UHGV virus genome: UHGV-0124967 | Length of the DNA stretch: 52,734 bases | Reading direction: 5' to 3' (one strand) | DNA from: a virus | In this document: positions 1,647-46,852 of the stretch, piece after piece | Numbering within the stretch: position 1 is the stretch's first letter | How the letters are laid out: each line of letters begins with the position of its first letter | The notes under the pieces: model-generated | Told to the model about the DNA's origin: nothing | Databases searched by the model: none | The model's input: the letters and a program-made list of their open reading frames with translations, nothing else | Translations under genes and position numbers: made by a program

Positions 1647-1843
1647 CGCAATAACTCCGTTTTGTTAATTAACTAAACAATTCTACCATTTTGTGATCTG
1701 TGTTACACTTTGGGCTTATACATAATGTGTTTTTTGATCTATATCAACATACGAAATGATAGCTTCTGCGGTGATTTGCTCATCGGATGGGTGGATCATC
1801 ACGAACAACAAATGACAGTAAAACAAACAGTAAGGTGAATACA

Positions 1844-2089
1844 ATGAAAAAACTAATTGTTGCTTGCATCTTATCAGCTCTGTCTTTTGGTGCTTTTGCT
1901 TCTGTAAATTCGACAGATAAGAGTGATGCTGGCACTGCTCAATATGGTGATACTGGCCTTGATAACCAACGTTCGAGTTATTTCAATACTGACTCATGGA
2001 AAGAAAAACAACTACAAGGTAAAATTATTGACAGTGAATGTAATTTACCTATCCATTTTTCTGGTGTAAATGATGGGTGTAAAAAATAA
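1844..2089 (+). CDS. small secreted protein, 81 aa (tail-region moron), function unknown
   Basis: ATG at 1844 with AAGGTGA 8 nt upstream; MKKLIVACILSALSFGAFA looks like a cleavable signal peptide; two Cys in mature part; opposite strand to flanking tail genes. Confidence 0.55.
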   Translation: MKKLIVACILSALSFGAFASVNSTDKSDAGTAQYGDTGLDNQRSSYFNTDSWKEKQLQGKIIDSECNLPIHFSGVNDGCKK

Positions 2090-2100
2090 AAACAATGCAT

Positions 2101-2130
2101 AAAAAAAACGGGGCTTATGCCCCGTTTTTT
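2101..2130. terminator. bidirectional rho-independent terminator
   Basis: A8-CGGGGC-TTAT-GCCCCG-T6: perfect hairpin flanked by A-run and T-run; follows the plus-strand moron and overlaps the J stop codon. Confidence 0.75.
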
Positions 2131-5100
2131 ATGCTGTCGTTGATGTTCTAAATGATCCGGTGCCTCTTGCTACTATCATTGTTGGAGAATACAACGCGGT
2201 ACAATATGCGTATCCTTTAGATGATGATGTTTGAGGACAATATATTTTCCCGATAATATCTGATGCTTCTAAACCAGAAAAAGCGCATTGCACTGTTAAT
2301 GTGCATCCACCATAAGGCACGTAATATGAAATTGTTTTGTTTTTATCTCCGCAACTAAACGTTACGTTATAAATGGATCTATATTCACCAGACATTAATG
2401 AAATAGTCGCCATAAGCATAACTGATTTCGTCAATGCATTATCCGTGCTGTCTTTATATGTGATGGTTGCGCTATAACTTTCGTTATGCCCAAGCACTCG
2501 ATCTGGACCAACCCCCATGTTAGCAACGTCACCGACAAATGACTTTGCCTCTACTGTACCTTTAAACTTCCCGCTTGTGGCCTGAATCTCACCAGTGAAT
2601 TTACCAGATGTTGCGTACACCGTACCGCGTACAGTGACGTTGTTGAACTCCGCATTGCCGTTTTTATTTAGCATCCAGCCATCCGAACCAGCTTTATAGT
2701 TGGTTGACTGAATTTGCTGCGCAATCTTCGCGGTAGTGATTGATGCGTCTCTGATCCACGCATCACGGATGTAGCAAGCACCGTTAGTAACATAGAACGG
2801 GGTCTGATAGGAGCCACCTGCCGCAGTCATAAGCACGAAACTGTCAACGAGGAAAATACACCGCGATTGAACGTTAGTCCCGCTACCAGTAAGGCCGAGC
2901 GACATTCCTGTAGCGTATTTCATACCGTTTTTATCAGTGGCAATCTTAATTGAATATGACGCATCAACGTTACCTTTGAAGTCAGTCAGTGCTTTTGATG
3001 TCGTTTCTATCGCCGTTGTGTTTCCGTTAATAGTTACTTTCAACTGGTCGATTCTGGTTGACAATGCCTCGTCTGCCGTTGCCATAGCCTGTGACCATTC
3101 CGTGATGCTTGAGTTTACATCGTCGAAAGATGCCGAGATCTGGCCAAATTTTTCCGCGCTTGATGTTTCATGCGTAGAAAGTGCAGTTGACACTTCGGAT
3201 ACTTTCGAATTAATCGTACTGGTAAGCGATGAGTTAAGGCTGCTGATTGCGTCAGTGCGTGCATTCTTCTCATCTGCGATCGCTTTATCCATCCTAGTTA
3301 CGTTGCTTGTCACCTTGCTATCGAGCGTGGAAATTGACGCATTAACCCCGCTAATAGCTTCTGCGCGTGTGCTTGATTCGTCAGCGATAGCTTGATCAAG
3401 ACGGCTAACACTGGCATTTGTGTTATTTTCAAGCGTTGTTAAATCAGCTTTAACCTCTGTTATTGCGTCGCTTCTTGCCTGCGTTTCATCTGATATTGCC
3501 TTATCGAGGCGCTTAACACTGGCGTCAGTTTTCTTGTCAAGCGTTGAGATACTTGCGTTCACGTCGCTGATAGCCTGAGTACGCGCACTTGTTTCGTCTG
3601 CAATTGCCCGATCAAGACGGTTTACGCTGGCGTCAGTTTTCTTGTCAAGATTGCTTATTGAGGCATTTACACCGTTAATAGCTTCAGCGCGAGCGCTGGC
3701 CTCGTCAGCTACTGCGCGTTGCACATTAGAGATCTGACCTTTAAGGTTTGTGTCCATCACATTCATTTCTGCCGTGATGGTTTCCAGTGATTCCGCTGTC
3801 GCTTTTTTCTCTTCAGCGATAACGTTGTCAATGCGGTCAATTTCCGCTTTCGTCTCTGTCCTGCCTTTCTTGTACTGAGCGGTAAGAGTTACGCGAGTGT
3901 TAGTCTGTGCAAGCGAGTTATTAATAAGAGCAAGTGAGGCGTTTTGCAGACTTGCTTTTGCTTGCGCCAGTTCGCTGCCAACTTTTTCGCTAGACACCTC
4001 CAGCGAGTCGATTCTCGACTCATGCTGTCCAATATCATCGGAGTTTTCCTTAACTATTTTATAAAGATCTTCCGTTTCTTTTTTGAGCGTATCAGTATCA
4101 GCTTTTATTGATCCTGTTTCTATGGTTAGGTTGTCAGTAGCAGTTTTAAGGTCATTCGTAGCGCTTTCGATAAGATCAGTGCGGTCGCCTAGATCTTTAA
4201 TGTCACCAACCATTTCTTTAAATTGTTCGGAATTCATTACGTCTTTGGTGACGTAATCGGTAATTTCATCAAAGTTTTCTGTTGGCTTACCTGACGCTTC
4301 CACAAAGTCAGACACACCAAAAGCGTTACGCGCGCGCACATAAACGTAATATGTGTGACCTGTATTCATGCCGCCAAACGTCCACTGATGACCACGCCCG
4401 GTATATTGTGCTTTAGTGGTTATTGATGCCGGATCAGTGATCTGCGTTTCACCTGAGTAATAAAACTCGTAACTGGTATCAGTGGTGAGCATTGTTCTGC
4501 TGATCGGGTAAACTGTAGCCTGGAATACACCGGGAACCCAATTAACGCCAACTGGGGCCGCTGGTGCGCCAATAACCAGATCGACAATGCTTTCCGCACC
4601 CTTCATGCCCGTGTCATTTCTGCCACGAATGCCTAATGAGTAGTTGCCAGCATCAATGCCATAAAAATCATAACTGTAATTCGTGGTTTCGTAGCTTTTA
4701 ACTACAGCGCCTTCGGCGTTATACACGCGAATCTCAAAGGTCAGGCGACGCGTTGTCGTCTGTGTTTCCCATGTTGCGCGACATTGAACCGTTTCAGATC
4801 CAACGTTTAACACCTTCAGATTTTCAATGTTCGGCACGCGGAAGTGATTAAGCGTGTCGTTATTGATCTCGAAGATTGCGCCATTATCGACTTCGGCCTG
4901 CTTATGTGGATCATGCTGTGCGGCCTCGATGGTGTATACGCTGTTATTTTCTGTTTCTGCTACACTGGTGATTCGACATAAAACGGGTTTTGCTGCGTTG
5001 GTTGATACAGCAAAAACAGTGCCGTTACGAATCCACGCCGGGGCGGCTGCAAGGGTGATAATGTTCCCGTTAACTCCGATGATCTGGTGTTTTTTAAATT

Positions 5101-6682
5101 TACCATCGCTATCAAGTAAGCTGATGGTGTCGCCAGCCGCGATATATTCAGAATCAACCTTGTCGACCGTGATCGCTCTGCCATTGTTCGCCACGATGCG
5201 ACCGCCTAAACGAGCGCCTGCGCGATTATTATCGAGGATCTCGATTATATCCCCCGGCGTAAAGTGAATGGCGTCACGGGCCATTTTAAATGTGAATTTT
5301 GACGGCTCGCGTTTCGCTGTTTCGATCAGCCATTTACCAGCGCGGTGCGCTTGCCCGCGTGAAGTGCAACCGAACGCCTCCAACGTGGTTTCGTTATAAC
5401 CATCACGGGCGATTAGTTTATCATCTGCGACATATTCTTTTGATTGCTCCCAGCCGTTTTCAGGGTCAGTCCAGGATACGATCACGGCGTTGTAGCATTC
5501 TGCGCGTGCGATACTTGAACGAGTAAACGCGCCATCAACGACGTTTGCATTTGTGATGGTGGCGATTGGATCTTGTGGCGCATCAATCATCACGGTAAGA
5601 CGTTGTCCGTCCCATAACGCGATACCACGGAACATACCTGCGATGTTATCCAGTAGGTCGCGGGCGCTCATTTGCTCCGTAATGTAAGCGTTAAGCGTCA
5701 TGCGAGGTTCAAGGCCACCATAGCCATCATCAACCAACTGATCGCAGTATTGAGAAAGCACGTACAAAGCGCCATCATCAACATCAATGTAACCAGCATG
5801 TCGAGCAAGTCCAAAGCGCTCGTTTTTAACCAGATACCGGAAAAGCCATGCAGGGTTATTGGTATACGCCTTTTTAAATCCACCAAGCCATAAACCTGAA
5901 TATGTGCGCGTTTCAGGGTTGTAGTTGTCAGGCACATCAACAATCAGGCCGCGAAGGTGATAGGTGCGGGTAGGCGTATCAGTATACTGATCATGGTCAA
6001 TTACGGCGCCAGCTACAGCGGTATGAGGATAAGACAGATTATCATCTATTATTTCGCTGTAACTACTCCACCGCGTATCATTCCGCAATAGATCGCTGTT
6101 GCTGTCTGGTGTTGTGCGACGAACGCGAATATCAAACGGTTTTTCATCCGGCGCTTTAATGATGTGAGCTTCCAGGTATTCACCGCTTTGTTTACCAGGG
6201 CCAATGTGTATGTCTTTAATCGGCGACCACGTAGAAGATGATGACGGTTTAACATCAACCATCAACATGACGGATGTATTACATTGATTGCCCTTTTCAT
6301 CTGACTGAACGAGAGCATCAACACCAAGATTCAACCTGACGCGGGTAACGTTTGGATCTGAAACAGTCCTGATTATTGGTGTGTCGTGAGTTACCTTTGC
6401 GTTGACAATAACGGTTGACTCAATGGCGTTAAAACCATTAATCGGCGATTGGTCAGCCGTGCCGTTGCGCCAGGCTATACTAATCCCCGGAATTGATGTA
6501 TTCCCGTTTGCGTCAGTAACAGGAGTGTCATTAAGCATCACGTCATTCAATGGCGCTTTCTGGTTTACCGGACCGTATATCGGCCCTTCGCTGAGAATAT
6601 CTAAAACACGATAAAACTGTTTGTGATACAGGTTATCGTTCAATAATGTTGGTGTTTTGGCTTTGCCGCCGCCGCTACTCAT
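2129..6682 (-). CDS. J: tail tip / host specificity protein J, 1517 aa, with extended C-terminal region
   Basis: Very large ORF after tail assembly genes I/K/L; AGGAG RBS; N-terminal two-thirds reads like lambda J family; C-terminal third has coiled-coil repeats and a distal domain. Confidence 0.9.
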   Translation of the reverse strand: MSSGGGKAKTPTLLNDNLYHKQFYRVLDILSEGPIYGPVNQKAPLNDVMLNDTPVTDANGNTSIPGISIAWRNGTADQSPINGFNAIESTVIVNAKVTHDTPIIRTVSDPNVTRVRLNLGVDALVQSDEKGNQCNTSVMLMVDVKPSSSSTWSPIKDIHIGPGKQSGEYLEAHIIKAPDEKPFDIRVRRTTPDSNSDLLRNDTRWSSYSEIIDDNLSYPHTAVAGAVIDHDQYTDTPTRTYHLRGLIVDVPDNYNPETRTYSGLWLGGFKKAYTNNPAWLFRYLVKNERFGLARHAGYIDVDDGALYVLSQYCDQLVDDGYGGLEPRMTLNAYITEQMSARDLLDNIAGMFRGIALWDGQRLTVMIDAPQDPIATITNANVVDGAFTRSSIARAECYNAVIVSWTDPENGWEQSKEYVADDKLIARDGYNETTLEAFGCTSRGQAHRAGKWLIETAKREPSKFTFKMARDAIHFTPGDIIEILDNNRAGARLGGRIVANNGRAITVDKVDSEYIAAGDTISLLDSDGKFKKHQIIGVNGNIITLAAAPAWIRNGTVFAVSTNAAKPVLCRITSVAETENNSVYTIEAAQHDPHKQAEVDNGAIFEINNDTLNHFRVPNIENLKVLNVGSETVQCRATWETQTTTRRLTFEIRVYNAEGAVVKSYETTNYSYDFYGIDAGNYSLGIRGRNDTGMKGAESIVDLVIGAPAAPVGVNWVPGVFQATVYPISRTMLTTDTSYEFYYSGETQITDPASITTKAQYTGRGHQWTFGGMNTGHTYYVYVRARNAFGVSDFVEASGKPTENFDEITDYVTKDVMNSEQFKEMVGDIKDLGDRTDLIESATNDLKTATDNLTIETGSIKADTDTLKKETEDLYKIVKENSDDIGQHESRIDSLEVSSEKVGSELAQAKASLQNASLALINNSLAQTNTRVTLTAQYKKGRTETKAEIDRIDNVIAEEKKATAESLETITAEMNVMDTNLKGQISNVQRAVADEASARAEAINGVNASISNLDKKTDASVNRLDRAIADETSARTQAISDVNASISTLDKKTDASVKRLDKAISDETQARSDAITEVKADLTTLENNTNASVSRLDQAIADESSTRAEAISGVNASISTLDSKVTSNVTRMDKAIADEKNARTDAISSLNSSLTSTINSKVSEVSTALSTHETSSAEKFGQISASFDDVNSSITEWSQAMATADEALSTRIDQLKVTINGNTTAIETTSKALTDFKGNVDASYSIKIATDKNGMKYATGMSLGLTGSGTNVQSRCIFLVDSFVLMTAAGGSYQTPFYVTNGACYIRDAWIRDASITTAKIAQQIQSTNYKAGSDGWMLNKNGNAEFNNVTVRGTVYATSGKFTGEIQATSGKFKGTVEAKSFVGDVANMGVGPDRVLGHNESYSATITYKDSTDNALTKSVMLMATISLMSGEYRSIYNVTFSCGDKNKTISYYVPYGGCTLTVQCAFSGLEASDIIGKIYCPQTSSSKGYAYCTALYSPTMIVARGTGSFRTSTTA
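3200..3730 (-). repeat. about five tandem ~35-codon coiled-coil repeats inside J
   Basis: Protein repeats AIADETSARTQAISDVNASISTLDKKTDASVKRLDK and variants; the DNA repeats are visible by eye. Coordinates approximate. Confidence 0.6.
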
Positions 6683-8607: not shown

Positions 8608-8661
8608 TTTCTCACCTTGTCATTCTGTGATCTGCGTCACGCTAAATCATACCAAAATGGA

Positions 8662-8690
8662 TTGATCGCGGTTTTTACAATATGTATATT
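8662..8690 (+). promoter_or_regulatory. putative sigma70 promoter for plus-strand moron operon
   Basis: TTGATC (8662-8667), 17-bp spacer, TATATT (8685-8690) with TG at 8683-8684; about 45 bp upstream of first moron gene. Confidence 0.45.
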
Positions 8691-8736
8691 TTACTCAAAC
8701 GGAAGCATAGTTAACAAAATGGCGCGGAGGTGCGTT

Positions 8737-8901
8737 ATGACTGAAAAGCTATGGAAGTTGACGGTATTCATGACAGACGGTAGGGAAAAGGTTATCGCCC
8801 TGTATGACGACGAGGGTGAAGCATTGGTTGACGCGCTTTTACTTGCTGAGGATGACCGCCTTTTGGGATACCAGATCGAACCTGTCAAATATGAGGGTTA
8901 G
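8737..8901 (+). CDS. hypothetical small acidic protein, 54 aa (moron)
   Basis: ATG 8737 with GGAGG 6 nt upstream; inside longer track ORF 8617..8901. Confidence 0.5.
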   Translation: MTEKLWKLTVFMTDGREKVIALYDDEGEALVDALLLAEDDRLLGYQIEPVKYEG

Positions 8902-8905
8902 CAAA

Positions 8906-9259
8906 ATGCAAAAGTATCGTCTTGATGTCTGGATGGCTGGTAGTGATGATTGGGAAGGTTACGGTTTGCATGACAGTTACGAAATGGCGGTCGAGGAAGG
9001 AGAAAAACTCGTTCGATTCTTCGGTCGCGCCAGAGAATTCAAAATTACTCCAGTACAAATACCGGATAAGGTGGAAGATATGAACCCGAAAGATATTAAT
9101 GGTAGCTTCACTGCTTATTATGCAGATTCTATGGACCAGTCTTGCCCTGGTGAAATACACGCAAAAGGTTTCCCGGCTGACGATCCAGAAGCAAAACGCG
9201 AATACGAAAAAGCGGCGAAAGATTTCTGTATCGATAACCTTTCAGCATTCGATAAATAA
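8906..9259 (+). CDS. hypothetical protein, 117 aa (moron)
   Basis: ATG 8906, 5 nt after previous stop, GAGGGT RBS; loosely resembles the preceding protein. Confidence 0.55.
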   Translation: MQKYRLDVWMAGSDDWEGYGLHDSYEMAVEEGEKLVRFFGRAREFKITPVQIPDKVEDMNPKDINGSFTAYYADSMDQSCPGEIHAKGFPADDPEAKREYEKAAKDFCIDNLSAFDK

Positions 9260-9268
9260 GGCGGCAAC

Positions 9269-9517
9269 ATGGGGCGGCGCAATTACGGTGATTATGTGTA
9301 CACGTTGAAACAGGCCGCCCGCCTCGTCGGTTATCATGAGCACGAATTTATTGATTTGATGATTGAGCGCGGGATACTGTACCAGGTCTGTTTAACGCTG
9401 TACCCAAAAGCGAAATACCTACAGGAAAAGTTATTCATCATCATGACAGATGAAAACCAGGTTAACCATTCATTCGTCACTGATAAGGGCGTTAATTATC
9501 TGCGTGATAACTTATAG
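9269..9517 (+). CDS. hypothetical protein, 82 aa (moron)
   Basis: ATG 9269 following previous gene; same strand and spacing. Confidence 0.5.
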   Translation: MGRRNYGDYVYTLKQAARLVGYHEHEFIDLMIERGILYQVCLTLYPKAKYLQEKLFIIMTDENQVNHSFVTDKGVNYLRDNL

Positions 9518-9527
9518 GTGACAGATT

Positions 9528-9644
9528 ATGAAAATAGAAGTTTTGGCGCTAATAATAATGGGATTGATAGTATTTGGCGTTCATTCTGTAGATCTGGACT
9601 GGAAAACGATAGCAGAAAATATAGCATTAATGGAAATGGAATAA
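9528..9644 (+). CDS. putative small membrane protein, 38 aa
   Basis: ATG 9528 with AGGTGA RBS; MKIEVLALIIMGLIVFGVHS hydrophobic; below ORF-track size cutoff. Confidence 0.35.
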   Translation: MKIEVLALIIMGLIVFGVHSVDLDWKTIAENIALMEME

Positions 9645-9650
9645 TAATAA

Positions 9651-9677
9651 CCCCGCTTCTCGCGGGGTCGTGTTTAT
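9651..9677 (+). terminator. rho-independent terminator ending the plus-strand moron operon
   Basis: CCCCGC-TTCTC-GCGGGG hairpin followed by T-rich TCGTGTTTAT. Confidence 0.6.
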
Positions 9678-9874
9678 ACGCCATCAAGCAAAAACAAAAC
9701 TTCCTTCCCTTCTCTGGATCTGCACCCCACATACCCATCACCAACGTCGTGAAGATACCATATATCGCCATTATCAGCTTTTACAGCAAGGTCGTTGATC
9801 TCATAGTCATCAAACAATGTGAAAGCGTCAGTTTTGTCCACTACACAAGTCCCGTACATATTAACCACCATCAT
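9674..9874 (-). CDS. hypothetical protein, 66 aa, translationally coupled to M
   Basis: ATG at 9874..9872 overlaps the M stop (ATGA). Confidence 0.4.
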   Translation of the reverse strand: MMVVNMYGTCVVDKTDAFTLFDDYEINDLAVKADNGDIWYLHDVGDGYVGCRSREGKEVLFLLDGV

Positions 9875-10224
9875 CTAACAACTTGCTCAAACGTTGCGTT
9901 AAGCGTGTATACATGACCGTCTTTCGTCATACTCCAGCTACGGCAAACAAAAAGCCTTTGCACGCCATCCATCGACGGCGACCAGTAAAAAGCCTCGACA
10001 GCGCCGCGCGCCATCAAGAATGCTTCAGCCTGGATCGCCACGTTTCCACCATCACCGCATCCTGCGCTACTGCCTTTAAAGACCAGGGTGTAGCTGTCAA
10101 GCAATGTGTTGATCCCTTTCGCCTGGCGCTGTTCATAACCATCACCAAGTTTGACAACGGACACATTCGGTTCCCTGGTTACGCTGTAGCTTCGTTGCGG
10201 CGTCCATTTGAACACTTCCGGCAT
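9871..10224 (-). CDS. M: minor tail protein M
   Basis: 117 aa between tape measure and L; G-rich RBS. Confidence 0.75.
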   Translation of the reverse strand: MPEVFKWTPQRSYSVTREPNVSVVKLGDGYEQRQAKGINTLLDSYTLVFKGSSAGCGDGGNVAIQAEAFLMARGAVEAFYWSPSMDGVQRLFVCRSWSMTKDGHVYTLNATFEQVVR

Positions 10225-10285
10225 AAAACCCCCCCATAAGTTACATTTTGTATATATCTTTACGCGCTTCTACGCGAAAAATAAG

Positions 10286-10302
10286 ATCATTGTCACAATG
10301 AT
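10286..10302. promoter_or_regulatory. perfect palindrome ATCATTG-TCA-CAATGAT (possible operator)
   Basis: 7-3-7 inverted repeat between divergent M and plus-strand moron genes. Confidence 0.3.
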
Positions 10303-10324
10303 TATAGCTAGTTTACAAAATGGC

Positions 10325-10353
10325 TTCACATAGTACGCAACAAGATGTATATA
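10325..10353 (+). promoter_or_regulatory. putative promoter for plus-strand moron pair
   Basis: TTCACA (10325-10330), 17 bp, TG-n-TATATA (10346-10353); about 40 bp upstream of ATG 10394. Confidence 0.4.
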
Positions 10354-10874: not shown

Positions 10875-10913
10875 AAAAATAACCCCGGCATTGCACCGGG
10901 GTTTAGTTTATTT
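10875..10913. terminator. bidirectional rho-independent terminator
   Basis: CCCCGG-CATTGCA-CCGGGG hairpin (10883-10901) with A-run before and T-rich after; overlaps tape-measure stop. Confidence 0.65.
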
Positions 10914-13250
10914 GCGGCGAGGTTGCAACATTCCGCCTGGTCTTTGAGATTCCCTTGTTATCATTTTCATGGCTACACGTTCCATTGTTAATTCAAGTCT
11001 GCGGCTGTCTTCGTCGCTGAATCCGTTCGTGGTCTGAATGCTGATACTGACAGGCATACTAATACCGCCACCGCCGCCAATATCACGGCCCGGAATAACT
11101 CTGCCGTTCTCGCCAGGAATCATATATTGATTCCCGTTAGATGTCTGGAATAGCTCCGGCCTGTTGTGTTCCCCTACACGGTACATATTGCCACCAATGA
11201 CGCTACCACCATTAAAGCGACCGCCGCCAAAAATTGACGTAGCCAGCGACATGATCGCAGTGAGTGCCGCAGAACCAGCCGCCGCCCATGCGCCGCCAGT
11301 TGACGCCGCTGTTGCCGCCGCCGCCGGGGCCGCCGCCGCAGCAATCTGGCCTTGCGCCGCTACCGCGCCCGCCGTGGTACTTGCCTGAGTCGCTTTGCTT
11401 TGCGTTTCCATCATGATCTGATCTGCTATCCAGTTTGCAGCTATGTCTGAAAGCCTGTTACCGATATTCCCGAGGATATTGCTGCCTAAGTTAGCAAAAA
11501 CATCACTCAATGATTGAGTACCATTTAACAGGCCAACAAGTGCATTGCTCATACCACCTTTAAGGCCATTAACGCAATCACCGATAAGGCTGTTTGTGTC
11601 GCTTTGCGCCTGCCATTGCTCCCACTTCAGATCGCGGATCTGTTGCTCATAGGCTAACAGTTCCTGTTTCTGTTGCGCTTCCGTCACGCCCAGGTCGATA
11701 AGCATTTGCTTACGGACGGCCCATTCATTTTGAACCTGCTGAATAGGGTCTACTTCGCCCTTTAGCTGATCCATCGGGCTTACTATTTGCTCCCATTTGT
11801 CGCGCAATTCCTCTACCGGAATTTGTGCTAATTCTTCCTTTAGTTCCTTACCTATCCCTTTTTGCGCGGCGCGGTACTCAAGGAGAGTGATTTTACCCTG
11901 GGCGAATGCAGCATCAATGGCCTTGCCGCTCTCTAACGCTTTGCGCATAGCGGCGGCGTCTTTGTTGTACTGGTCAGAAACGCTTATACCTTTATCGCCA
12001 AGACGATCAGCTTCAGATTTCTTCTCTTTTTTCTGTTTTTTCGGTTTGTCTACTGGCTTGCCGGATCCGGTAATCGCTCCGTCATTGGCGGCATTCTGTT
12101 CATTTTTCCTTGCTTCTTCTGTAGCCTGGATTGCTGCGGTCAGATCATCCTGTAGTTGCATGACCTTGCCAACGGTCTTACCGTATTTCTTCTCGTAGTT
12201 GCTGTTATATTCGTCGGTTTGCTCTCCTACGACCTCCTTCATCCATTTGTAGGCATCCATTAGTGCCTTGATTGGCGTCACCATTGCGATGATCTTCTCG
12301 GCTACCTCGCCAGCCTTGATTCTGACATCTTCAAACATGTCGATGAATTCGCCACCAGCCGTCTTCAGGGTGTTAAAGCAGGTTTTAGCGAAATCAGCGC
12401 CTTCACTTAAAGCCTTAACACCTTTCGTTACAAGATCGATACCAGCAACAACCGTATCGGATACACCGAAAAGATCATCCAATTGCTCAACAAGTCCCAT
12501 AACCTCGACTTTAAGCTCATTCAGGGCCATGCCGGATGTGCGCGGCAACTGCGCAAACTTCTCGTTTGTTTCCTGCGTAGCCGCCTGGATTGCGTTAACC
12601 ATCCTTTCTGCCGTGATCTTACCGTCCAGCATTTCGGCGCGGAATTGGCCCATTGATAACCCCATCTGGCGTGCCATTGTCTGTACGATGGTCGGGGTGT
12701 TTTCTAACAGGCTGTTGAATTCTTCAGCACGCAACACGCCACCGTCGATAGACTGACGGAATTGACGCATTGAGTTTGACATCTGCTCCGCTGACGCGCC
12801 GCCCAACGCCCCCATTTTCTGAATCGTACCTACCAGGTTAAGCAATTGCCCTTCAGTGGCGGACGTGTTCTTCAGTGAGATAGCTAAGCCTTGCCACAGA
12901 TCCCCGGTATCCTTCATGCTTTGGCCTGTTTCTTTTGATATTGCTTTCAGGCCATCAAAAACCCGTCCGGCGGACTCCGCATCGCCCGTAAGCATTTTGA
13001 TTTTTACGCGAAGCATTTTTGCTTGCTCCGCCATATCCATAAATTGACGCACGGCCTCCGCAGCAATTAGCAAATGGATAACCCTGGTCAGTGCCTTGAT
13101 GGATGTTTTCAGGGTGTTTACCTGGCGGTCAGCCTGTTTTGCGCCGCGCTCTATACGCCCAAAGGCCTGGTCTGCCTGTCGTTGTGCAACGAGAAGTTGA
13201 CCAGTTTTCGCATCAACTTCGTAATAAATTGTACCTACACTGGTAGCCAT
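10908..13250 (-). CDS. H: tail tape measure protein
   Basis: 780 aa; alpha-helical Ala/Gln-rich body, Gly-rich C-terminus; between chaperone and M. Confidence 0.85.
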   Translation of the reverse strand: MATSVGTIYYEVDAKTGQLLVAQRQADQAFGRIERGAKQADRQVNTLKTSIKALTRVIHLLIAAEAVRQFMDMAEQAKMLRVKIKMLTGDAESAGRVFDGLKAISKETGQSMKDTGDLWQGLAISLKNTSATEGQLLNLVGTIQKMGALGGASAEQMSNSMRQFRQSIDGGVLRAEEFNSLLENTPTIVQTMARQMGLSMGQFRAEMLDGKITAERMVNAIQAATQETNEKFAQLPRTSGMALNELKVEVMGLVEQLDDLFGVSDTVVAGIDLVTKGVKALSEGADFAKTCFNTLKTAGGEFIDMFEDVRIKAGEVAEKIIAMVTPIKALMDAYKWMKEVVGEQTDEYNSNYEKKYGKTVGKVMQLQDDLTAAIQATEEARKNEQNAANDGAITGSGKPVDKPKKQKKEKKSEADRLGDKGISVSDQYNKDAAAMRKALESGKAIDAAFAQGKITLLEYRAAQKGIGKELKEELAQIPVEELRDKWEQIVSPMDQLKGEVDPIQQVQNEWAVRKQMLIDLGVTEAQQKQELLAYEQQIRDLKWEQWQAQSDTNSLIGDCVNGLKGGMSNALVGLLNGTQSLSDVFANLGSNILGNIGNRLSDIAANWIADQIMMETQSKATQASTTAGAVAAQGQIAAAAAPAAAATAASTGGAWAAAGSAALTAIMSLATSIFGGGRFNGGSVIGGNMYRVGEHNRPELFQTSNGNQYMIPGENGRVIPGRDIGGGGGISMPVSISIQTTNGFSDEDSRRLELTMERVAMKMITRESQRPGGMLQPRRK

Positions 13251-13303
13251 GATTTAACCTCATGCAAAAATGTGATCTGTGTATCTATTTTATACAAAAT
13301 GGC

Positions 13304-13332
13304 TTTACTTCAACGACTACATTTTGTATAAA
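13304..13332 (+). promoter_or_regulatory. putative promoter for lipoprotein moron
   Basis: TTTACT (13304-13309), 17 bp, TG-n-TATAAA (13324-13332); partner inverted copy at 13291-13302 faces tape measure. Confidence 0.45.
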
Positions 13333-13377: not shown

Positions 13378-14037
13378 ATGAAACGGTTAGCAAAAGTGGC
13401 AATGATTGCGGCGGTATTGGGTCTGGTTGGTTGCAATGAGGATAATGAAAAAGCGCCTATAGTGACCACTCAAGAACAACAAGCATTAGCAGAGAAAAAT
13501 GCTAAATGGCTTGCAGAACAACAAGCAAAACAAGCCGCATATGAGGCACAGTTAGCAAAAGAAAAAGCTGGTAAACAGTGGCTTGTGGTCGAAAGAAAAG
13601 ATGATATGCAGGACACAAAAAACGTGTTCCTTTTCGTGAAAGCAGAACATTTCAGCGGAAGTCTTGATGCTTTCCCTACACTGAAAGCACGGGATGAAAA
13701 CAAACCTGTATTAACAATCGCTTGCCAGGGTAATAAAACAAAAATGTTCGTAGCATGGTCAAACCATGTAACTGACGCTGGGGACACTACTTATATTAAC
13801 TACCGGATCGGCGATCACAAAGCTGTAGCTACTGAATGGAGTCGGTCAACTAACTATAAAGCTCTTGGATTATGGAACGGCAAAAAAGCCATTCCAATGA
13901 TTAAAAAACTGGTTAACGAAAAACAATTTATCATTGAAGTAGTGCCGGAAGCTGGCGACATTGAGAAAGCAGTGTTTAACATTGATGGTCTTTATAACCA
14001 CATCGACAAAGTGAAAAACGCTTGCAACTGGAATTAA
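13378..14037 (+). CDS. lipoprotein, 219 aa (tail-region moron), function unknown
   Basis: ATG 13378 with GAGGTGG RBS; signal peptide with lipobox LVGC; coiled-coil-like segment; AT-rich compared with neighbours. Confidence 0.7.
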   Translation: MKRLAKVAMIAAVLGLVGCNEDNEKAPIVTTQEQQALAEKNAKWLAEQQAKQAAYEAQLAKEKAGKQWLVVERKDDMQDTKNVFLFVKAEHFSGSLDAFPTLKARDENKPVLTIACQGNKTKMFVAWSNHVTDAGDTTYINYRIGDHKAVATEWSRSTNYKALGLWNGKKAIPMIKKLVNEKQFIIEVVPEAGDIEKAVFNIDGLYNHIDKVKNACNWN

Positions 14038-27321: not shown

Positions 27322-27486
27322 ATTACCCCAACAAATACGGCTTTACTGCTTTCTGTATATCAGGCCATTATCAAGCAATGTTTGCATGTGTTCGCGATCC
27401 ATGCCGCTTGATTCCCAATGTGGCCCAGGTATTCGCAACCAATCGTAAACCCAGGGTATTCGCCTTTACACCGGATTTTGTAAAGT

Positions 27487-28257: not shown

Positions 28258-28536
28258 TTATGCCATGCGTGCAAATTCAAGTGATTTGCATTCGTAGTCT
28301 TCCTCTGCCTGTTCGATGACTGCCATCATCATTTCGTTTGCGTTGTTGAATGCGTTGCTTTGTGCGAACTTGTCGGCTCCACCTTCTTCTTCGAACTCCG
28401 CGTTGTTTGCTGCAATGTAGTGATATTCGATGTTGTTCAGGTAAGGGCTTGCAGCGTGTGCTGGGTCTTCTTTCTCCACCATCTCCCAAAATGCGTTTAA
28501 GCGAGATTCGACTTCTTTGTTAATCCAGCGTTTCAT
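28258..28536 (-). CDS. hypothetical acidic protein, 92 aa
   Basis: GGAGGG RBS; preceded by 98-bp intergenic region with inverted repeat and CRP-like site. Confidence 0.5.
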   Translation of the reverse strand: MKRWINKEVESRLNAFWEMVEKEDPAHAASPYLNNIEYHYIAANNAEFEEEGGADKFAQSNAFNNANEMMMAVIEQAEEDYECKSLEFARMA

Positions 28537-28617
28537 TTTTCTACCCTCCGCATCGTTCTCTCTTCAGCTTCTTTATAACAAAATGGCACTGCCGAAACAA
28601 TGCCATTTCGTAAACCT

Positions 28618-28633
28618 TGTGATACAGATCACA
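28618..28633. promoter_or_regulatory. CRP-consensus-like palindrome TGTGA-N6-TCACA
   Basis: TGTGATACAGATCACA; adjacent to inverted repeat AAATGGCA...TGCCATTT (28582-28608). Confidence 0.35.
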
Positions 28634-32305: not shown

Positions 32306-32501
32306 CCTTCACCTCGCGACGATAGATTTCTACTGGCTTAACCGGAATAGCGTTAAAATCACCTTCATCCAGTGCGGCAATAAACGTTAGCGCCAACCGT
32401 GCTTCAACACCGCTTAAATACTTGCACCATGCCTCACCGTTATAATCTTTAAAAAGAATAATCACTTTTTCATGTTTATCTCTTGTTGTTTCATTATTCA
32501 C
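32295..32501 (-). CDS. hypothetical protein, 68 aa, non-ATG (GTG) start
   Basis: No in-frame ATG; begins at GTG overlapping the Q stop. Confidence 0.4.
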   Translation of the reverse strand: MNNETTRDKHEKVIILFKDYNGEAWCKYLSGVEARLALTFIAALDEGDFNAIPVKPVEIYRREVKDEA

Positions 32502-33216
32502 CCCGTGTCACTCGTTTAATTTCGTTATCAGCCCGCGCCTCTTCTTTGAACAATTCAGTAATGGCGTCTTCATAGAAAGCACGGTATTTCTTCCACCACG
32601 TTGATCGGCTTACCGGAAATACAAGCTGATTAACCGCACGCCGGACAAGATCTACAGGGAAACGCGAGTACCCGCGCCCGCCGCAATGCTGGCACGTTTT
32701 GAACACTGGCATTTCCGCTGCTTCACTGGCTGCTTTATCCGGTATCTCGCCGCGCCCTTTGCATCGTTTACAATGATTGCGAACTTTTCCATGCCCCTTG
32801 CATTTTTTGCAAAGGTGTTTTTCTCCGTAGTCGTCAAACGTAAATTTATATCCGCCGCAATCCATACAAGTTTTTTCTGTCGCGGCACTCTGGCAGTAAT
32901 CCCGAAACGCGAAAACGGCAACAAGAATAATAAGATCATTGCGTTTGTCCTCGTCCAACTCCATGACGTATTCGTAATCTTTTGCCATAGCTCTTAAACG
33001 CTCTGTAAGCAAAACTACGGCCCTGTGTTTTTCGGCTTGCGATAATTCCATCTTCCCTAAAAAAGCGCTATAACCAAGCTCTACGCGCGATTGCGCCATA
33101 CCTGCTGCGGTTAGTGCATCAGTAGTATTAAGCGAGTCTGGGGACGTGCCCCGGCTTTCATCTGACAAACGCGGTGATTTTGGGAAGTGGAATTTAAGAA
33201 TAGATTCCAAATTCAT
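32494..33216 (-). CDS. Q: late-gene antitermination protein Q (zinc-finger type)
   Basis: 240 aa; four CxxCxGxG repeats; follows RusA and a small gene as in nin regions. Confidence 0.65.
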   Translation of the reverse strand: MNLESILKFHFPKSPRLSDESRGTSPDSLNTTDALTAAGMAQSRVELGYSAFLGKMELSQAEKHRAVVLLTERLRAMAKDYEYVMELDEDKRNDLIILVAVFAFRDYCQSAATEKTCMDCGGYKFTFDDYGEKHLCKKCKGHGKVRNHCKRCKGRGEIPDKAASEAAEMPVFKTCQHCGGRGYSRFPVDLVRRAVNQLVFPVSRSTWWKKYRAFYEDAITELFKEEARADNEIKRVTRGE

Positions 33217-34595: not shown

Positions 34596-34754
34596 AATGC
34601 TCCCTCCCTTTAAGGTGATTTCTACGCATTTCAGCGCTGCCGGATTTTTAAAGAGCATTTCGTTTGCTTGAAGTATACAAAATGGATACACGTAAACAAG
34701 ACGAAAAGCGCCATTATGTGACCTGTATCACACAATGACGCCATTTTGTAAACT

Positions 34755-37906: not shown

Positions 37907-38322
37907 GCCTCACCTCATATGGTATTCAATAAACCACCTAATAAACAGGCATAAGGCAATAAAACACCAGCAACAGCACATATAAAACAATGTGTCGTCC
38001 ATAATTAAGCCTCAATAACACCATAATCAAACGTGCCTAAATACTGTTCGATACTTACAACCTCAATACCATCAATGCACCGTTTCTACACAGACACCCT
38101 GCTTTCATTTTCCCGGAAGTGCATATTAGAAAGCACTTCATCGGCTGGATAGCCTTTCCCAGCGACGTAGGCATCGAGACCTACTCCACCCTCAACACAA
38201 TAAAGCATTAATTCGCTGGCCATCTTGTTTTCCTCCGCGCCGTAAACCTTTTGATTTCAGTTCACAAAACGGATTCGCGATCACAACACAAAATGTATTT
38301 TTATGTGATCGCCATCACTATG

Positions 38323-41563: not shown

Positions 41564-41712
41564 CCTTTAATCTCCTTCGCTGTTAACACTATGTATAAGG
41601 CTTTATTCGCGGCGCTCCACATTTCGGCATCATGAAGCATTTCCGCTACCGCCAGTTTGAATTGAAGCGCCAGAATAACCATAATGTCACCTCCGAACGT
41701 TTACATTTTGTA

Positions 41713-42003
41713 TTAATGGTAGCGGACTTTATCCAGGGGTTTTTCCCCTAAATGGCGTGGTTGCGTTGCGTGGTAGTAGCTGCCGCTTTCATTTTCCGTA
41801 TACCATTTTACTGATCCTTTGCGACGTTCTTTAATGCTATTTGGTTTGCATCTTTCCTCGTTTGCAAATCGAATAGCTTTATCCACATTGTCTGTTTTAT
41901 TGATTGCAGGTGATGATTTTCTTTCGTTTTCTCTTTTTATCCTTCTGCGTTCCCTGGCATTCATTTTGCTATCACATTTGCCATATATAATTGTAACGCT
42001 CAT
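41713..42003 (-). CDS. basic protein with arginine-rich motif; possible N-like antiterminator
   Basis: 96 aa; GGAG RBS; NARERRRIKRENERK near N-terminus; first gene of the leftward operon after CI. Confidence 0.5.
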   Translation of the reverse strand: MSVTIIYGKCDSKMNARERRRIKRENERKSSPAINKTDNVDKAIRFANEERCKPNSIKERRKGSVKWYTENESGSYYHATQPRHLGEKPLDKVRYH

Positions 42004-42465
42004 AATCTGATCTCCGTATATCCTTGATAAAAATTAATAAAAATCATCTTCGTTAATTGCCGCACTTCCAGCGGCTGACCAGATTGTTAATGAGCGGCTT
42101 AACATCTTTCAACTAATCCCGCAATCATCGCCGTTCCCGGCGTGACCTTGCTCACTCCAAGCAAGCTGACTCGTCGCCTTGCGTGCGGTTTCGTGGGGGA
42201 TGTAACGCTTTAAACACCCCATGCGCCTTGTTATCAGTGCCGCTTTCGGTCCCCCATCGGGGAGTTACTCCACGGTTGACAAGGTGTTAAGCCTGATTTT
42301 TAAAGTGCCAGGAAGTTGCTTTTGTTACCTGCGACCTTCCTTTGACTCGCAATATACGCCCCGTAAAACATCGAGTCAATCCATTTTGTATACTTTTTTA
42401 AAATATTTTATATGCTATTGATATTTAAACAATAAATAACGTTTTCTGTTTACGTTTTGGCGTTT

Positions 42466-42502: not shown

Positions 42503-43150
42503 TTATGGCAGGTTTACGATCTTCGCATCAACCACCACGCCTATAATTTTTGATTCTGGATTCATAGGGATTGGCGGATACAGCGGATTGAGCGAACGTA
42601 AAAGCCTTTGACCTCCATCAATAATCAACTGTTTAAACGTCGGTATCTGCCATTCCTCAAGCTGGGCTATAACCAGTTTGCCGTCAATAGCTGGCGCGTG
42701 CGGGTCAACAAGTATCATCGTCCCCGCCGGGATGCTCAACCCCTGCGGCGCGTTCATTGATTCACCTTTGGCAACCAGCCAGTAACTGTCATCTGAACAA
42801 ATAACGCTAGTCGTAACGTGTCGTAATGCTGAACGCCTTGCGTCATCCATATTGTTTACTGTGTCCTTCCAGTCAATAACCGGGTAACTACCTAAATCAC
42901 GCGGCGGCACAGCCTGAAGTGTATTAGAAACAGAATCATCAATGACCATACCATCATGTGTAACAGTGAACTGCCGACGACCAAGCTCTCGCATAATCCG
43001 CGCAATATCTTCAAGATTTGGCTCGCGGCGACCGTTCAGCCAGTGTGACAGGTCGCCTTTAGTTATCCCCATGCGATCCGCTAGTGAATCCTGGCTCATG
43101 CCCTGCGCCCGCATGAGCTGCTTTGCTAAGTCATACCATTTTGTTTTCAT
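42503..43150 (-). CDS. CI-like repressor (HTH plus S24 LexA-like self-cleaving domain)
   Basis: 215 aa; N-terminal HTH (QDSLADRMGITKGDLSHWLNGRR), C-terminal GESM...K pattern. Confidence 0.85.
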   Translation of the reverse strand: MKTKWYDLAKQLMRAQGMSQDSLADRMGITKGDLSHWLNGRREPNLEDIARIMRELGRRQFTVTHDGMVIDDSVSNTLQAVPPRDLGSYPVIDWKDTVNNMDDARRSALRHVTTSVICSDDSYWLVAKGESMNAPQGLSIPAGTMILVDPHAPAIDGKLVIAQLEEWQIPTFKQLIIDGGQRLLRSLNPLYPPIPMNPESKIIGVVVDAKIVNLP

Positions 43151-43210
43151 GTCGCTACCCTATAACCTCAAAAAAGTTTGATGCAAGTCACAAAACGTGT
43201 ATTTTAAGCC

Positions 43211-43238
43211 TTGATCTTAAAATTCCATTTTGTAAACT
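43211..43238 (+). promoter_or_regulatory. putative rightward early promoter (pR-like)
   Basis: TTGATC (43211-43216), 16 bp, TG-n-TAAACT (43231-43238); followed by palindromes. Confidence 0.45.
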
Positions 43239-43275
43239 TGCAGACAAGGTAAGGCCATACTTGCAAAGACGCAAG
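43237..43275. promoter_or_regulatory. candidate operator palindromes
   Basis: CTTGCAGACAAG (43237-43248) and CTTGCAAAGACGCAAG (43260-43275); similar GCAAG/CTTGC half-sites at 42161-42183. Confidence 0.35.
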
Positions 43276-43456
43276 GAAAAAGATAACGGAAGGCACAAAA
43301 AGGCACTTACCTTAAGCTCTTTAAAAATCCGGTGTCGCTGCGAAGCGAAAAACAAATATCACGCAACGGCGGGATCTGTTGAGCGGTCAGTCACTGCTAT
43401 CTAATGCTAATGGGATGCCCGCCCGCGCGTTCACTCTAACCATAGGAGAAAACACG

Positions 43457-43714: not shown

Positions 43715-43717
43715 TCT

Positions 43718-44903: not shown

Positions 44904-45005
44904 ATGGACGGTAAACACGTTTTCGCCCTGGCTTTTGCCATCGCTGCGGCAATCGATGTTAACGTCGCCTTGTTCGGCGGTCTGTACCTGCTAATCAATC
45001 CATAA
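44904..45005 (+). CDS. putative small membrane peptide, 33 aa
   Basis: ATG 44904 with GAGGAT RBS; MDGKHVFALAFAIAAAIDVNVALFGGLYLLINP. Confidence 0.3.
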   Translation: MDGKHVFALAFAIAAAIDVNVALFGGLYLLINP

Positions 45006-45145
45006 CCTACCTACCATTCTGTAAATCGAAAATTAGCCACCTGATGGCGCCTCTGACGCAATAAGACACTGCAACCCGTGCAAATGGGTTACGCGGTGGT
45101 TTTTTGCATTGTAGCGCGTCTGAGGCGTTTTAAGGAGTTGGAACG

Positions 45146-45646
45146 ATGCGCAAGTTAACACACGAAGAACACATCACAGATATAGCCAAAGTTAACACTT
45201 ATGTTGAAGTATTGGGAAAAATTAAGAACCATAGAGATAAAGTCCCGTGCCGCTGCAAGATCTGTAGTCATGAGTGGTCTGCCAGGCCTTGCAACCTTAA
45301 AAGCGGGTACGGCTGTCCAAAATGCGCGAAATACGGTTTCCTTCGTCATGAGTATGGCAAACTTTACATCATGGTTGATGATCTGGAAGTGCCTACACAA
45401 ATGAAAATTGGGGTAAGTGTTCAGGAAAATAAACGAAGAAACGAGATATTAAAAAGCGCACATAAAGCAGGCGTTAGAATTCCTAATTTGCATATCGTGA
45501 AAACGTTAGAAGGGCCAACCGAAAATATACATGAACTAGAAAACACGATGCATAAGGCTTTTAGCAATTATAAAATTAACTTTCCTGTAAAATTTGATGG
45601 TAGCAATGAGTTTTTTATTACAGGCCGGAAGTATTCGACATGGTAG
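45146..45646 (+). CDS. zinc-ribbon plus T5orf172-like (GIY-YIG-like) domain protein
   Basis: 166 aa; AAGGAG RBS; CRCKICSHEW...CPKCAKYG, then KLYIMVDD...MKIGVSVQENKRRNEIL...NEFF. Confidence 0.55.
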   Translation: MRKLTHEEHITDIAKVNTYVEVLGKIKNHRDKVPCRCKICSHEWSARPCNLKSGYGCPKCAKYGFLRHEYGKLYIMVDDLEVPTQMKIGVSVQENKRRNEILKSAHKAGVRIPNLHIVKTLEGPTENIHELENTMHKAFSNYKINFPVKFDGSNEFFITGRKYSTW

Positions 45647-45715
45647 AAGAAGCATTTAAAGAGATTGTTTGCTGCCAATGAATATACAAAATGTAAAACC
45701 TGAGGATATAACATT

Positions 45716-46834
45716 ATGTGTCAAAGAAAGATTAGTGATGAACAGCTAATCACTGAACATAACAACGGTCTAACGTATAAACAGATCGCCGAAAAATACG
45801 GAATGGCAAAACGCAACGTCGAACGCCTGGGCGCACGGTTGGCGAAACGCGGTTTAATATCCACGCGTCGCGCGCCGGGTTTTGGCGTCAATGGTGAGTC
45901 ATTGCTCGTCGATAAGGATGGCAATGTGATTATGCGCTGGATTAAAACAGCCCGTGATCGCGATGAAATGGAAAGGCTAATGCAATCTGCTTGTGACGCC
46001 TTCACGGAAGAAATACCCCGCGCGGAGTCCGTGCCAGTGCCGGAAATTGATTTCCAAAAAAGCCTGGCCCTTTATCCGGTATTTGATCTGCATATCGGGG
46101 CGCTTGCTCATAAAGCTGAATGCGGCGATAGCTACGACACCGGGATCGCTGAGCGCGTGCTAAATGATTTCTTCGACTACGCGGTAGGCGCTGCACCGAT
46201 GTCTGAAAAAGCTGTTTTGCTGTTAGGAGGGGATGTGCTCCACACTGACGGACTGTTACCAGTGACGCCATCAAGTAATCACGTTTTGGATTGTGATTCA
46301 CGCTACGCAAAACTTGTTTACGTGGCGATCCGGTCGGTCAGGCGTGCTGTAGGTAAGATGTTGTTGAATCATAAGGATGTAGAAATTCAGGTGTTATCAG
46401 GTAATCACGACCAGTCAGGAATGATCTGGCTACGTGCGGCGCTGAAGGCTTTTTACGAAGATGAACCGCGCGTTACTGTTGATGTGTCACCTGCCATCGT
46501 CCACCACACACAGTACGGCAAAACATTCCTTGCATATCATCACGGTCATACTATCAAAAAACCTGACAATTTGTTGTCTGCCTGCGTCTCTGACTGGCGA
46601 GAAGACTTTGGCAAGTCTGCGGCGGTTTACGCTCATTGCGGGCACTGGCATCATCAACGGCTAATTGAATCATCGTTAGGCGTTGTTGAGTATCACGGCA
46701 CGTTAGCGGGTAAAGACGCTTACTCAACTAATGGCGGCTGGCGGTCACGTCGTATGGCAGCGGTGATTATTTACAGCCAGGATTATGGTGAGATCGGGCG
46801 CTTTGTTTATTACCCTGAATATTCCATTTTGTAA
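45716..46834 (+). CDS. HTH plus calcineurin-like metallophosphoesterase domain protein
   Basis: 372 aa; N-terminal HTH; phosphoesterase motifs DLHIG, GGDVLHTDG, GNHD, HHGH, GHWHH. Confidence 0.6.
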   Translation: MCQRKISDEQLITEHNNGLTYKQIAEKYGMAKRNVERLGARLAKRGLISTRRAPGFGVNGESLLVDKDGNVIMRWIKTARDRDEMERLMQSACDAFTEEIPRAESVPVPEIDFQKSLALYPVFDLHIGALAHKAECGDSYDTGIAERVLNDFFDYAVGAAPMSEKAVLLLGGDVLHTDGLLPVTPSSNHVLDCDSRYAKLVYVAIRSVRRAVGKMLLNHKDVEIQVLSGNHDQSGMIWLRAALKAFYEDEPRVTVDVSPAIVHHTQYGKTFLAYHHGHTIKKPDNLLSACVSDWREDFGKSAAVYAHCGHWHHQRLIESSLGVVEYHGTLAGKDAYSTNGGWRSRRMAAVIIYSQDYGEIGRFVYYPEYSIL

Positions 46835-46852
46835 ACCGGAGGTAATGACATA

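Follow-up and report, generated by a model that had tools for sequence, protein, structure and literature searches.

The C1 repressor of phage P1 recognizes 22 dispersed, asymmetric 17-bp operators (PMC8546580), and the stoperators of cluster A mycobacteriophages, bound by L5 gp71, comprise more than 20 asymmetric repressor sites of 13 bp, located within promoters or in short gaps between genes, for which genome-wide silencing of the prophage including blocks to elongation has been proposed (PMC9283540). For the mEpimmI group, described as temperate, Nus-dependent, non-lambdoid coliphages with immunity conferred by the repressor (pRep021), the 2025 report identified no operators, does not mention the motif treated here, and states only that the mEpimmI operator probably differs from that of lambda (PMC11893012). 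In this study, we analyzed the virus genome UHGV-0124967, a stretch of 52,734 nucleotides (hereafter, the window), in which a short motif recurs in both orientations. Our results suggest that this motif probably represents the conserved operator core for the CI-type repressor of the phage itself (Rep, the homologue of gp15), expanded genome-wide.

The window is ~85% identical over most of its length to the Escherichia phages mEp021, mEp554, mEp010, mEp013, mEp044, mEp515 and MagusPhagus. Based on this similarity, we regard it as a temperate member of the mEpimmI group, i.e. of the relatives of mEp021, to which its orientation is inverted. The following genes are referred to throughout; the head, lysis, Q and nin genes are also on the minus strand, and the plus strand carries the replication genes, starting from ~43457.

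2129-6682, minus strand: tail fibre gene J
10908-13250, minus strand: tape measure gene
41713-42003, minus strand: gp17 (N-like)
42503-43150, minus strand: repressor gene Rep (gp15 homologue), CI type, with Pfam domains HTH_3 and Peptidase_S24

Searching the window for CCATTTTGTAWA with at most one mismatch returned 16 matches compared to 1.10 expected, and none of 100 dinucleotide shuffles reached 16, which bears out the recurrence that the sequence-only reading had noted by eye. The exact core CATTTTGTA occurs 14 times (0.93 expected), and CCATTTTGT is the top over-represented 9-mer of the window, low-complexity words aside. A position weight matrix (PWM) made from 21 copies gave 30 hits at a threshold of at least 11 bits, where 4 were expected. 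More than half of them (18/30) fall within the non-coding 13% of the window, defined as the remainder after a deliberately over-generous map of open reading frames (binomial P = 2e-9), in agreement with the claim that the copies are mostly intergenic. The positions read by eye were reproduced to within a base or two at 1686, 10243, 10312, 13291, 13319, 28575, 34674, 34741, 41703, 42381, 43225, 45683 and 46824, as were the weaker copies at 8649-8660 and 8711-8722; the copy at 27473 proved weak (9.1 bits), and about ten copies had been missed, among them 28603 (plus), 38261 (minus), 38285 (minus), 45014 (plus), 49750 (plus), 1657 (plus), 1717 (minus) and 8674, with further variants at 43187-43201 (minus) and 42353-42367. 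In all, ~25 sites span the window from 1.6 to 49.8 kb. They mark the boundaries of transcription units, not every gene gap: in the contiguous head-tail block (14.4-28.2 kb) no hit lies in an intergenic gap, and only lower-scoring coding hits were found (17402, 21353, 22373).

Among the 21 copies, information content is limited to 13 positions (0-12), (C/A)CATTTTGTAWA(C/A), with CATTTTG conserved at 90-100%; nothing is conserved at a -35 distance upstream or at a -10 distance downstream of the motif. The full site is 15 bp long, nnn-MC-ATTTT-GTAWA, with the motif as its core, and can be read as a one-armed version of the palindrome TATAC-N5-GTATA, the ideal form of which would be TATAC-ATTTT-GTATA. 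What is kept in the mEpimmI group is one arm (GTAWA), the A/T-rich centre (ATTTT) and, from the opposite arm, a single C, resulting in (C/A)CATTTTGTAWA. Five pairs of sites show a centre-to-centre distance of 24-25 bp, i.e. the OL sites 42353-42367/42378-42392 and the pairs with centres at 13298/13323, 28582/28607 and 8656/8681 (each 25 bp) and 38268/38292 (24 bp). The inverted pairs reported earlier are thus real, and tandem pairs occur as well. In lambda, ~24 bp between adjacent operators permits cooperative binding of two CI dimers.

The immunity region contains four predicted operators at the positions equivalent to OR and OL of lambda-like phages:

43222-43236, plus strand: OR1-equivalent operator ATTCCATTTTGTAAA, top PWM score (22.8 bits)
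43187-43201, minus strand: OR2-equivalent operator TACACGTTTTGTGAC, 51 nt upstream of the repressor start
42378-42392, plus strand: OL distal operator AATCCATTTTGTATA, abutting the -35 of the gp17 (N-like) promoter, present in 44 of ~46 loci
42353-42367: OL proximal operator TATACGCCCCGTAAA with palindromic arms, overlapping the -10 TATATT of the gp17 promoter

The OR1-equivalent starts 86 nt upstream of the repressor ATG, while OR1 is found at -82 to -86 in 14 prophages with a related repressor (see below). It overlaps the -10 of an early promoter, TTGATC-16-TAAACT, reading through nutL into the replication genes; the boxA of this boxA/boxB site, which is nutL in the mEp021 nomenclature, lies downstream of the promoter at 43315-43327. 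The OR2-equivalent is nearly identical to the OR2 of relatives, with the common sequence GTTTTGTGAC (TATACGTTTTGTGAC in the relative L237), located there at an offset of ~-53. On the OL side, the canonical gp17 promoter TTGACT-17-TATATT (42379-42351, minus) precedes nutR1 and gp17, and its two sites are 25 bp apart; the copy at 42381 looks antisense because it is the distal member of this operator pair. The longest direct repeat common to both early-promoter regions is the motif itself (TCCATTTTGTATACTT at 42380 and TCCATTTTGTAAACTT at 43224), and an inverted variant, CACGTTTTGTGACTTGCA, faces the copy at 43224. This arrangement mirrors lambda, where OL and OR share operators.

Next, we searched for relatives of Rep outside the group, which were retrieved solely by alignment of the helix-turn-helix (HTH) domain of the repressor, with one genome per bacterial species. 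This search gave 14 prophages from 13 other enterobacterial genera (Scandinavium, Superficieibacter, Kosakonia, Silvania, Buttiauxella, Yokenella, Erwinia, Proteus, Edwardsiella, Serratia, Providencia, Moellerella and a metagenome-assembled genome of Candidatus Ignatzschineria). All 14 prophages contain three TATAC-N5-GTAT(A) sites between a cro-like gene and the repressor, at approximately -82, -53 and -23 from the repressor start. In 9 of the 14, a strict two-site pair exactly 25 bp apart lies 0.75-2.7 kb downstream of the repressor; the other five showed one or zero strict downstream hits, or irregular spacing. In addition, a scan of viral contigs for inverted motif pairs yielded mostly mEpimmI contigs and chance matches in AT-rich contigs, and as its sole useful product L148, an IMG/VR contig of a different phage with a GC content of 52%. 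The L148 repressor shares the N-terminal domain and the recognition helix with Rep (ITKGAVSHWLNARREP versus ITKGDLSHWLNGRREP). On this contig, ACATTTTGTATA lies over the -10 of the cro-side promoter, and the perfect 13-bp palindrome ATACAATTTGTAT is found 26 bp from that copy. Ahead of boxA and an N-like gene, the inverted copies TATACAAAATGTATT and AATACATTTTGTATA, separated by ten bases, form a 25-bp pair in which each copy overlaps a promoter (TTGCAT-17-TATATT and TTCAAA-17-TATACT). The architecture of the gp17 promoter in the window matches that of L148, namely TTGCAT-17-TATATT with AATACATTTTGTATA.

The same arms are also present at OR and OL of Salmonella phage L, the c2 repressor of which is 53.6% identical in the HTH domain, and the operator WTACRAWWTGTAT has been predicted for a related repressor in the genome paper of phage epsilon34 (PMC2629481). 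Overall, the palindrome holds the canonical OR and OL positions in 16 elements sharing the HTH domain (14 prophages, L148 and phage L), and TATACATTTTGTAT, the commonest OR1 among these relatives, contains the whole motif. Therefore, the window motif corresponds to the right arm, the centre and one left-arm base of this operator family, which supports the suggestion of the sequence-only reading that it could be a shared regulator site and assigns it to the operators of the CI-type repressor clade to which Rep belongs. Applied to the HTH relatives, the same matrix gave 2-6 hits in each 20 kb, almost all of which lie at OR or OL, in contrast to the genome-wide hits in the window. The core was not found in 50 loci (~0.85 Mb) of other-group phages whose tail protein M is 66-70% identical and which do not have the repressor.

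In the mEpimmI group alone, the site has been multiplied to ~25 conserved copies at the starts and boundaries of transcription units. Across 78 related-phage loci, the motif occupies ~17 conserved places, each kept in almost every genome covering the place: same-place sites were found in 42-44 of ~46 immunity-region loci and in 23-32 of ~33 tail-region loci, so that ~45 related genomes keep their sites at the same places. Outside the immunity region, the window contains the following sites:

1654-1731: three variant sites with centres at 1661 (plus), 1690 (plus) and 1724 (minus), upstream of a plus-strand gene (1787-2089) beside the tail-fibre gene
8649-8725: three-site cluster with centres at 8656, 8681 and 8718, the middle one (TTTACAATATGTATA) near-palindromic, over divergent predicted promoters
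10240-10254, plus strand, and 10312-10326, minus strand: two facing sites between tail gene M (minus) and a plus-strand island
13291-13330: inverted pair (centres 13298 and 13323, 25 bp) between the tape-measure gene (minus) and an opposite-strand island (plus)
28575-28614: inverted pair (centres 28582 and 28607, 25 bp) upstream of a minus-strand gene (28258-28536)
34674-34688, minus strand: site TATCCATTTTGTATA, immediately following terminator t4, with the boxA of nutR2 (34645-34657) 28 nt further along, in 44 loci
34738-34752, plus strand: site ACGCCATTTTGTAAA, adjoining the t4 hairpin (34707-34742) on its upstream side and running antisense to the local operon, in 43 loci
38261-38299, minus strand: tandem pair AATCCGTTTTGTGAA and AATACATTTTGTGTT (centres 38268 and 38292, 24 bp), 49 nt upstream of a small minus-strand gene
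41700-41714, plus strand: single site TTTACATTTTGTATT at the gp17 (N-like) stop codon
45011-45025, plus strand: single weaker site CTACCATTCTGTAAA upstream of a T5orf172-type gene
45683-45697, minus strand: single site TTTACATTTTGTATA at a mosaic junction, with the T5orf172-type gene on one side and the next gene of the replication operon on the other
46821-46835, plus strand: single site ATTCCATTTTGTAAA that overlaps the 45716-46834 stop codon, with the helicase gene starting 29 nt downstream, in 43 loci
49747-49761, plus strand: single site CAGGCATTTTGTATA between ninB and the next gene

The sites at 8649-8725, 10240-10326 and 13291-13330 form the 5' edges of three opposite-strand islands interrupting the tail operon, and each of them also precedes the next tail gene. 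The first lies over the divergent predicted promoters of tail gene L (minus) and the antirepressor-containing island (plus), namely TTGATC-17-TATATT at 8662-8690 and TTGTTA-18-TAAAAT at 8717-8688. The former is the predicted promoter of the island (8738-9916), which includes an 82-amino-acid ANT/KilAC antirepressor-type protein (9269-9517), and it is overlapped by TTTACAATATGTATA. At the second edge, a perfect TATAAT lies 5 nt past the minus-strand site 10312-10326, and the pair at the third is conserved in 30 loci, with a spacing that equals the OL pairs of the HTH relatives. The gene 28258-28536 (minus) is followed by terminator t5 and then by the lysis genes. The site at 34674-34688 is likely an operator over an internal promoter, TTGTTT-16-TATACT, and the tandem pair at 38261-38299 has an orthologous site in mEp021 at 16566. 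The replication operon holds four sites (45011, 45683, 46821 and 49747).

Comparing the window to described systems, the closest are the lambdoid OL/OR operators of the phage L and epsilon34 type, which belong to the same TATAC-N5-GTAT family, go with an HTH_3 plus S24 repressor, occupy the same positions (the gap between repressor and early gene, and ahead of the N-like gene), use an arm as the -10 and are spaced at 24-25 bp. However, the sites of the window number ~25 and are genome-wide, compared to two clusters with 5-6 sites, one of the arms has degenerated and shows a conserved CC, neither an OR3 nor a Cro-type neighbour is present, and the repressor and N-like genes are co-oriented. The likeness to P1 C1 lies in a single immunity repressor with many asymmetric sites in both orientations, some paired, at separate operons; in contrast, the P1 repressor and its sequence are unrelated, P1 is a plasmid prophage, and the window sites would derive from a palindromic lambda-type operator. 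The L5 repressor differs in being monomeric with two DNA-binding domains, and L5 site orientation strictly follows transcription, whereas it is mixed in the window, where the sites lie at unit boundaries and not in most gene gaps. Since Rep is an ordinary CI-type protein (HTH_3 plus S24), the resemblance to P1 and L5 would be one of the way of working and not of membership. T4-type phages carry promoter-stem-loop cassettes, a repeated regulatory sequence at junctions of variable gene cassettes. These are longer promoter-plus-hairpin units, whereas the window repeat comprises 12-16 bp and most copies lie in collinear regions.

With copies at ~25 places, where two control regions would be usual, many separate transcription units could be silenced by a single protein. 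In a lysogen, Rep dimers would occupy all sites, binding cooperatively at the 25-bp pairs, and initiation would be blocked where the GTAWA arm plus two bases doubles as a -10. Good examples of such a predicted operator over a promoter are 43225, 34674, 8674-8690, the gp17 promoter and the promoters of L148. Candidates for blocked promoters are the early ones, the one before nutR2, those of the opposite-strand islands (the antirepressor island included) and the restart promoters of L, M and the tape measure gene. Single sites within operons (41700, 46821, 49747) may serve as roadblocks stopping read-through. One repressor would thereby silence many independent units, as do P1 C1 and L5 gp71. 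Any antagonist with the same sites as Rep may recognise the motif as well. We put forward the complete scheme only tentatively, as a possibility falling somewhat short of an even balance: in this coliphage family, which is common in the human gut, a lambda-type CI that is normally restricted to two operator clusters would have become a genome-wide silencer by means of ~25 one-armed operators at every unit boundary, acting through occlusion, 25-bp pairs and possibly roadblocks, with the sites doubling as junctions for cassette swapping.

Several observations weigh against Rep as the protein behind the motif. Binding by Rep is derived from the position of the sites and their association with the HTH clade. 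Most dispersed copies have one good arm only, with a conserved CC where dyad symmetry predicts TA, and position 0 is a C in 14 of 21 copies where symmetry predicts an A; near-palindromic copies are few (8674-8688, 42353-42367). The conserved CC would not be predicted for binding by a symmetric dimer, and the sites could be shared with another protein. Site orientation relative to transcription is mixed (~14 sense, 6 antisense); inverted pairs necessarily yield one of each. Some sites precede genes possibly needed in the lysogen, e.g. 1787-2089 beside the tail fibre gene. No recognisable OR3 was found in the window and no Cro-type HTH_3 gene beside OR; the region 43151-43456 instead contains a ~230-nt leader with nutL, followed by an 85-amino-acid protein (gp14 homologue) without a Pfam match. 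Both absences set the mEpimmI phages apart from all 14 same-HTH relatives; therefore, the switch does not follow the lambda model, and the sites could be shared with, or belong to, a different protein. Covariation between protein and site could not be used because the repressor HTH is invariant within the group, in which no heteroimmune member was found. Furthermore, one conservation profile of the sites across relatives is ascertainment-biased, and the mosaic junction at 45683 leaves room for a minor role in recombination.

Instead of Rep, a different factor could bind the motif and coordinate lytic expression. Candidates are the 85-amino-acid gp14 homologue encoded after nutL, which would act as a functional analogue of Cro, some other DNA-binding protein of the phage, or a protein of the host. 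The conserved asymmetry of the CC arm, which a symmetric CI dimer does not predict, and the missing Cro-type gene beside OR in mEpimmI phages fit this explanation, as does the sharing of operators by Cro and CI in lambda-like switches. TGTGATC or CRP-like elements near many clusters also point in this direction. The CRP-type palindrome TGTGA-N6-TCACA gave 6 hits compared to 1.5 expected, all adjoining motif copies, and TGTGATC 11 compared to 6.2; the elements are located as follows:

1692-1707: TGTGATC or CRP-like element
8626-8641: TGTGATC or CRP-like element
13271-13277: TGTGATC or CRP-like element
28618-28633: TGTGATC or CRP-like element
34717-34732: TGTGATC or CRP-like element
38279-38285: TGTGATC or CRP-like element
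38304-38319: TGTGATC or CRP-like element

They lie 18-31 bp outside the operator pairs or clusters. One of them is the stem of the t4 terminator hairpin, several coincide with a GTG-type operator arm, and relatives conserve no more than the TGTGATC half of the element at the tape-measure site. These elements could be half-sites for CRP, operator arms (GTGAT) in degenerate form or Dam (GATC) elements. Nevertheless, the 16 other elements associate the sequence family with the repressor HTH, while their neighbouring cro genes differ in type from gp14, and the two early promoters that Rep must repress have no other common repeat. Based on these points, we consider a different binding factor unlikely.

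The sequence-only reading had also pointed to an extended -10 element, TG-n-TAWAMT, overlapping many copies. Under this rival explanation, the motif would be a self-sufficient promoter element for the host sigma-70 RNA polymerase (extended -10-like TTTTG-TAWAMT) providing ~20 internal promoters, with its conservation reflecting promoter strength and not repressor binding. Approximately 14 of 20 intergenic copies indeed point to a start codon 29-233 nt downstream, two copies lie just upstream of nut sites, TAAACT, TATACT or TATATT follows TTTTG in 6-7 copies, and, as in the extended -10 of E. coli (TGn-TATAAT), an A/T-rich hexamer comes after TG, with many copies having no -35. However, the register is off by one base: TG abuts TAWAMT in all copies with no intervening base. 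T(-7) is present in 10/21 copies and A(-11) in 16/21, only 6-7 copies fit TAnnnT, and CATTTT is far more conserved than the hexamer, CATTTTG being near-invariant. The -35 hexamers are not enriched (mean best match 2.76 of 6 compared to 2.47 in random-position controls). Given this TG register, the weak T(-7) and the unenriched -35, neither a plain nor an extended -10 accounts for conservation being highest in CATTTTG. Moreover, six copies are antisense, and the copy at 46824 cannot serve as a helicase promoter because only ~9 nt would remain ahead of the start codon, excluding a ribosome-binding site. A signal for the host polymerase should also not be lineage-specific, whereas the core is absent from the 50 related-tail loci with the same host range and the sequence family tracks the repressor HTH clade across genera. 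A general promoter element is thus improbable; what stands of the promoter reading is that the GTAWA arm plus two bases forms a plausible -10 at some sites (43225 before nutL, 34674 before nutR2, and in L148).

Further candidates were discarded. By-eye comparison with the consensus of host sigma-54, -32, -28, -24 and -38 and of IHF, LexA, TyrR, CpxR, PhoP and DnaA sites, without a formal search, gave none that fits the conserved positions, and the motif as a -35 with a -10 located 17 nt downstream holds at 8711 only. When the phage genes were searched for sigma factors and other transcription factors, a Q-type antiterminator was the only find, and nothing sigma-like was present.

Regarding recombination at module boundaries, which had been raised as well, the motif is invariant at 45683 and 10243 while genomes differ completely in a flank next to it; at 45683, the right flanks are of three unrelated kinds and the left flanks of two, all joined to the invariant motif exactly at its edges. 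The break in homology at the motif is clear at 45683, partial at 13319, 28603 and 10243, and absent at most other sites. That the motif is chiefly a junction, with short identical sequences promoting cassette exchange between phages, is nonetheless very unlikely, even though the flanks at 45683 and the variable island contents downstream of 13319 and 28603 among relatives would fit: 12-16 bp is very short for homologous exchange, OR, OL, 34674 and 46824 lie in regions collinear across all relatives, breaks beside any conserved regulatory site are expected, and neither the operator-like positions at OR and OL nor the fixed 25-bp spacing would be accounted for.

Operator recognition by Rep thus remains the reading that we prefer. 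The mEpimmI operator had previously not been defined, and the present analysis provides a concrete operator sequence together with a map of ~25 predicted sites. If this reading is true, the mEpimmI family shows how a classical two-operator switch of an E. coli phage can grow into a network of dispersed silencing sites, a layout otherwise known from P1 and mycobacteriophages with unrelated repressors. It would also help to explain a quiet lysogen despite repeated opposite-strand islands, one of them with an antirepressor-type gene. Ultraviolet (UV) light is reported to fail at inducing lysogens of mEpimmI phages (PMC11893012), and the antirepressor island with its overlapping operator may bear on this failure.

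Rep itself shows a difference from its relatives at residue 33, where the window encodes ITKGDLSHW and 42 of the 43 IMG/VR relative loci searched encode ITKGGLSHW; in the remaining locus, the N-terminus was not found. This is a charged substitution adjoining the DNA-binding (recognition) helix.

At the tandem pair, a 9-bp inverted repeat, GCGATCACA ... TGTGATCGC (38276-38312), encloses the operator-like site 38285-38299 and would place it in a hairpin loop. No known RNA families and no tRNAs were found in the window. The Q-type antiterminator mentioned above (32494-33216), which matches Pfam Antiterm with E = 2.6e-30, has a further match to a zinc-finger region of the DnaJ type (CXXCXGXG), and the operator pair 28575-28614, upstream of terminator t5, is a candidate region for the Q late promoter. 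Within the replication operon, a gene combining T5orf172 (GIY-YIG-like) and a CapR zinc finger (45146-45646) is flanked by the copies at 45014 and 45683 and is possibly a mobile endonuclease gene. The last 126 bases of the window (52610-52734) are 95-98% identical to tail-fibre genes of the unrelated coliphages Dru_SM1 and KurtStettler, and the window end may extend into a shared tail-fibre module or a neighbouring element. Finally, the product of the opposite-strand island gene between the tape-measure and tail genes (13378-14037) contains a VasI domain of type VI secretion (E = 1.7e-16), which is surprising cargo for a siphophage.

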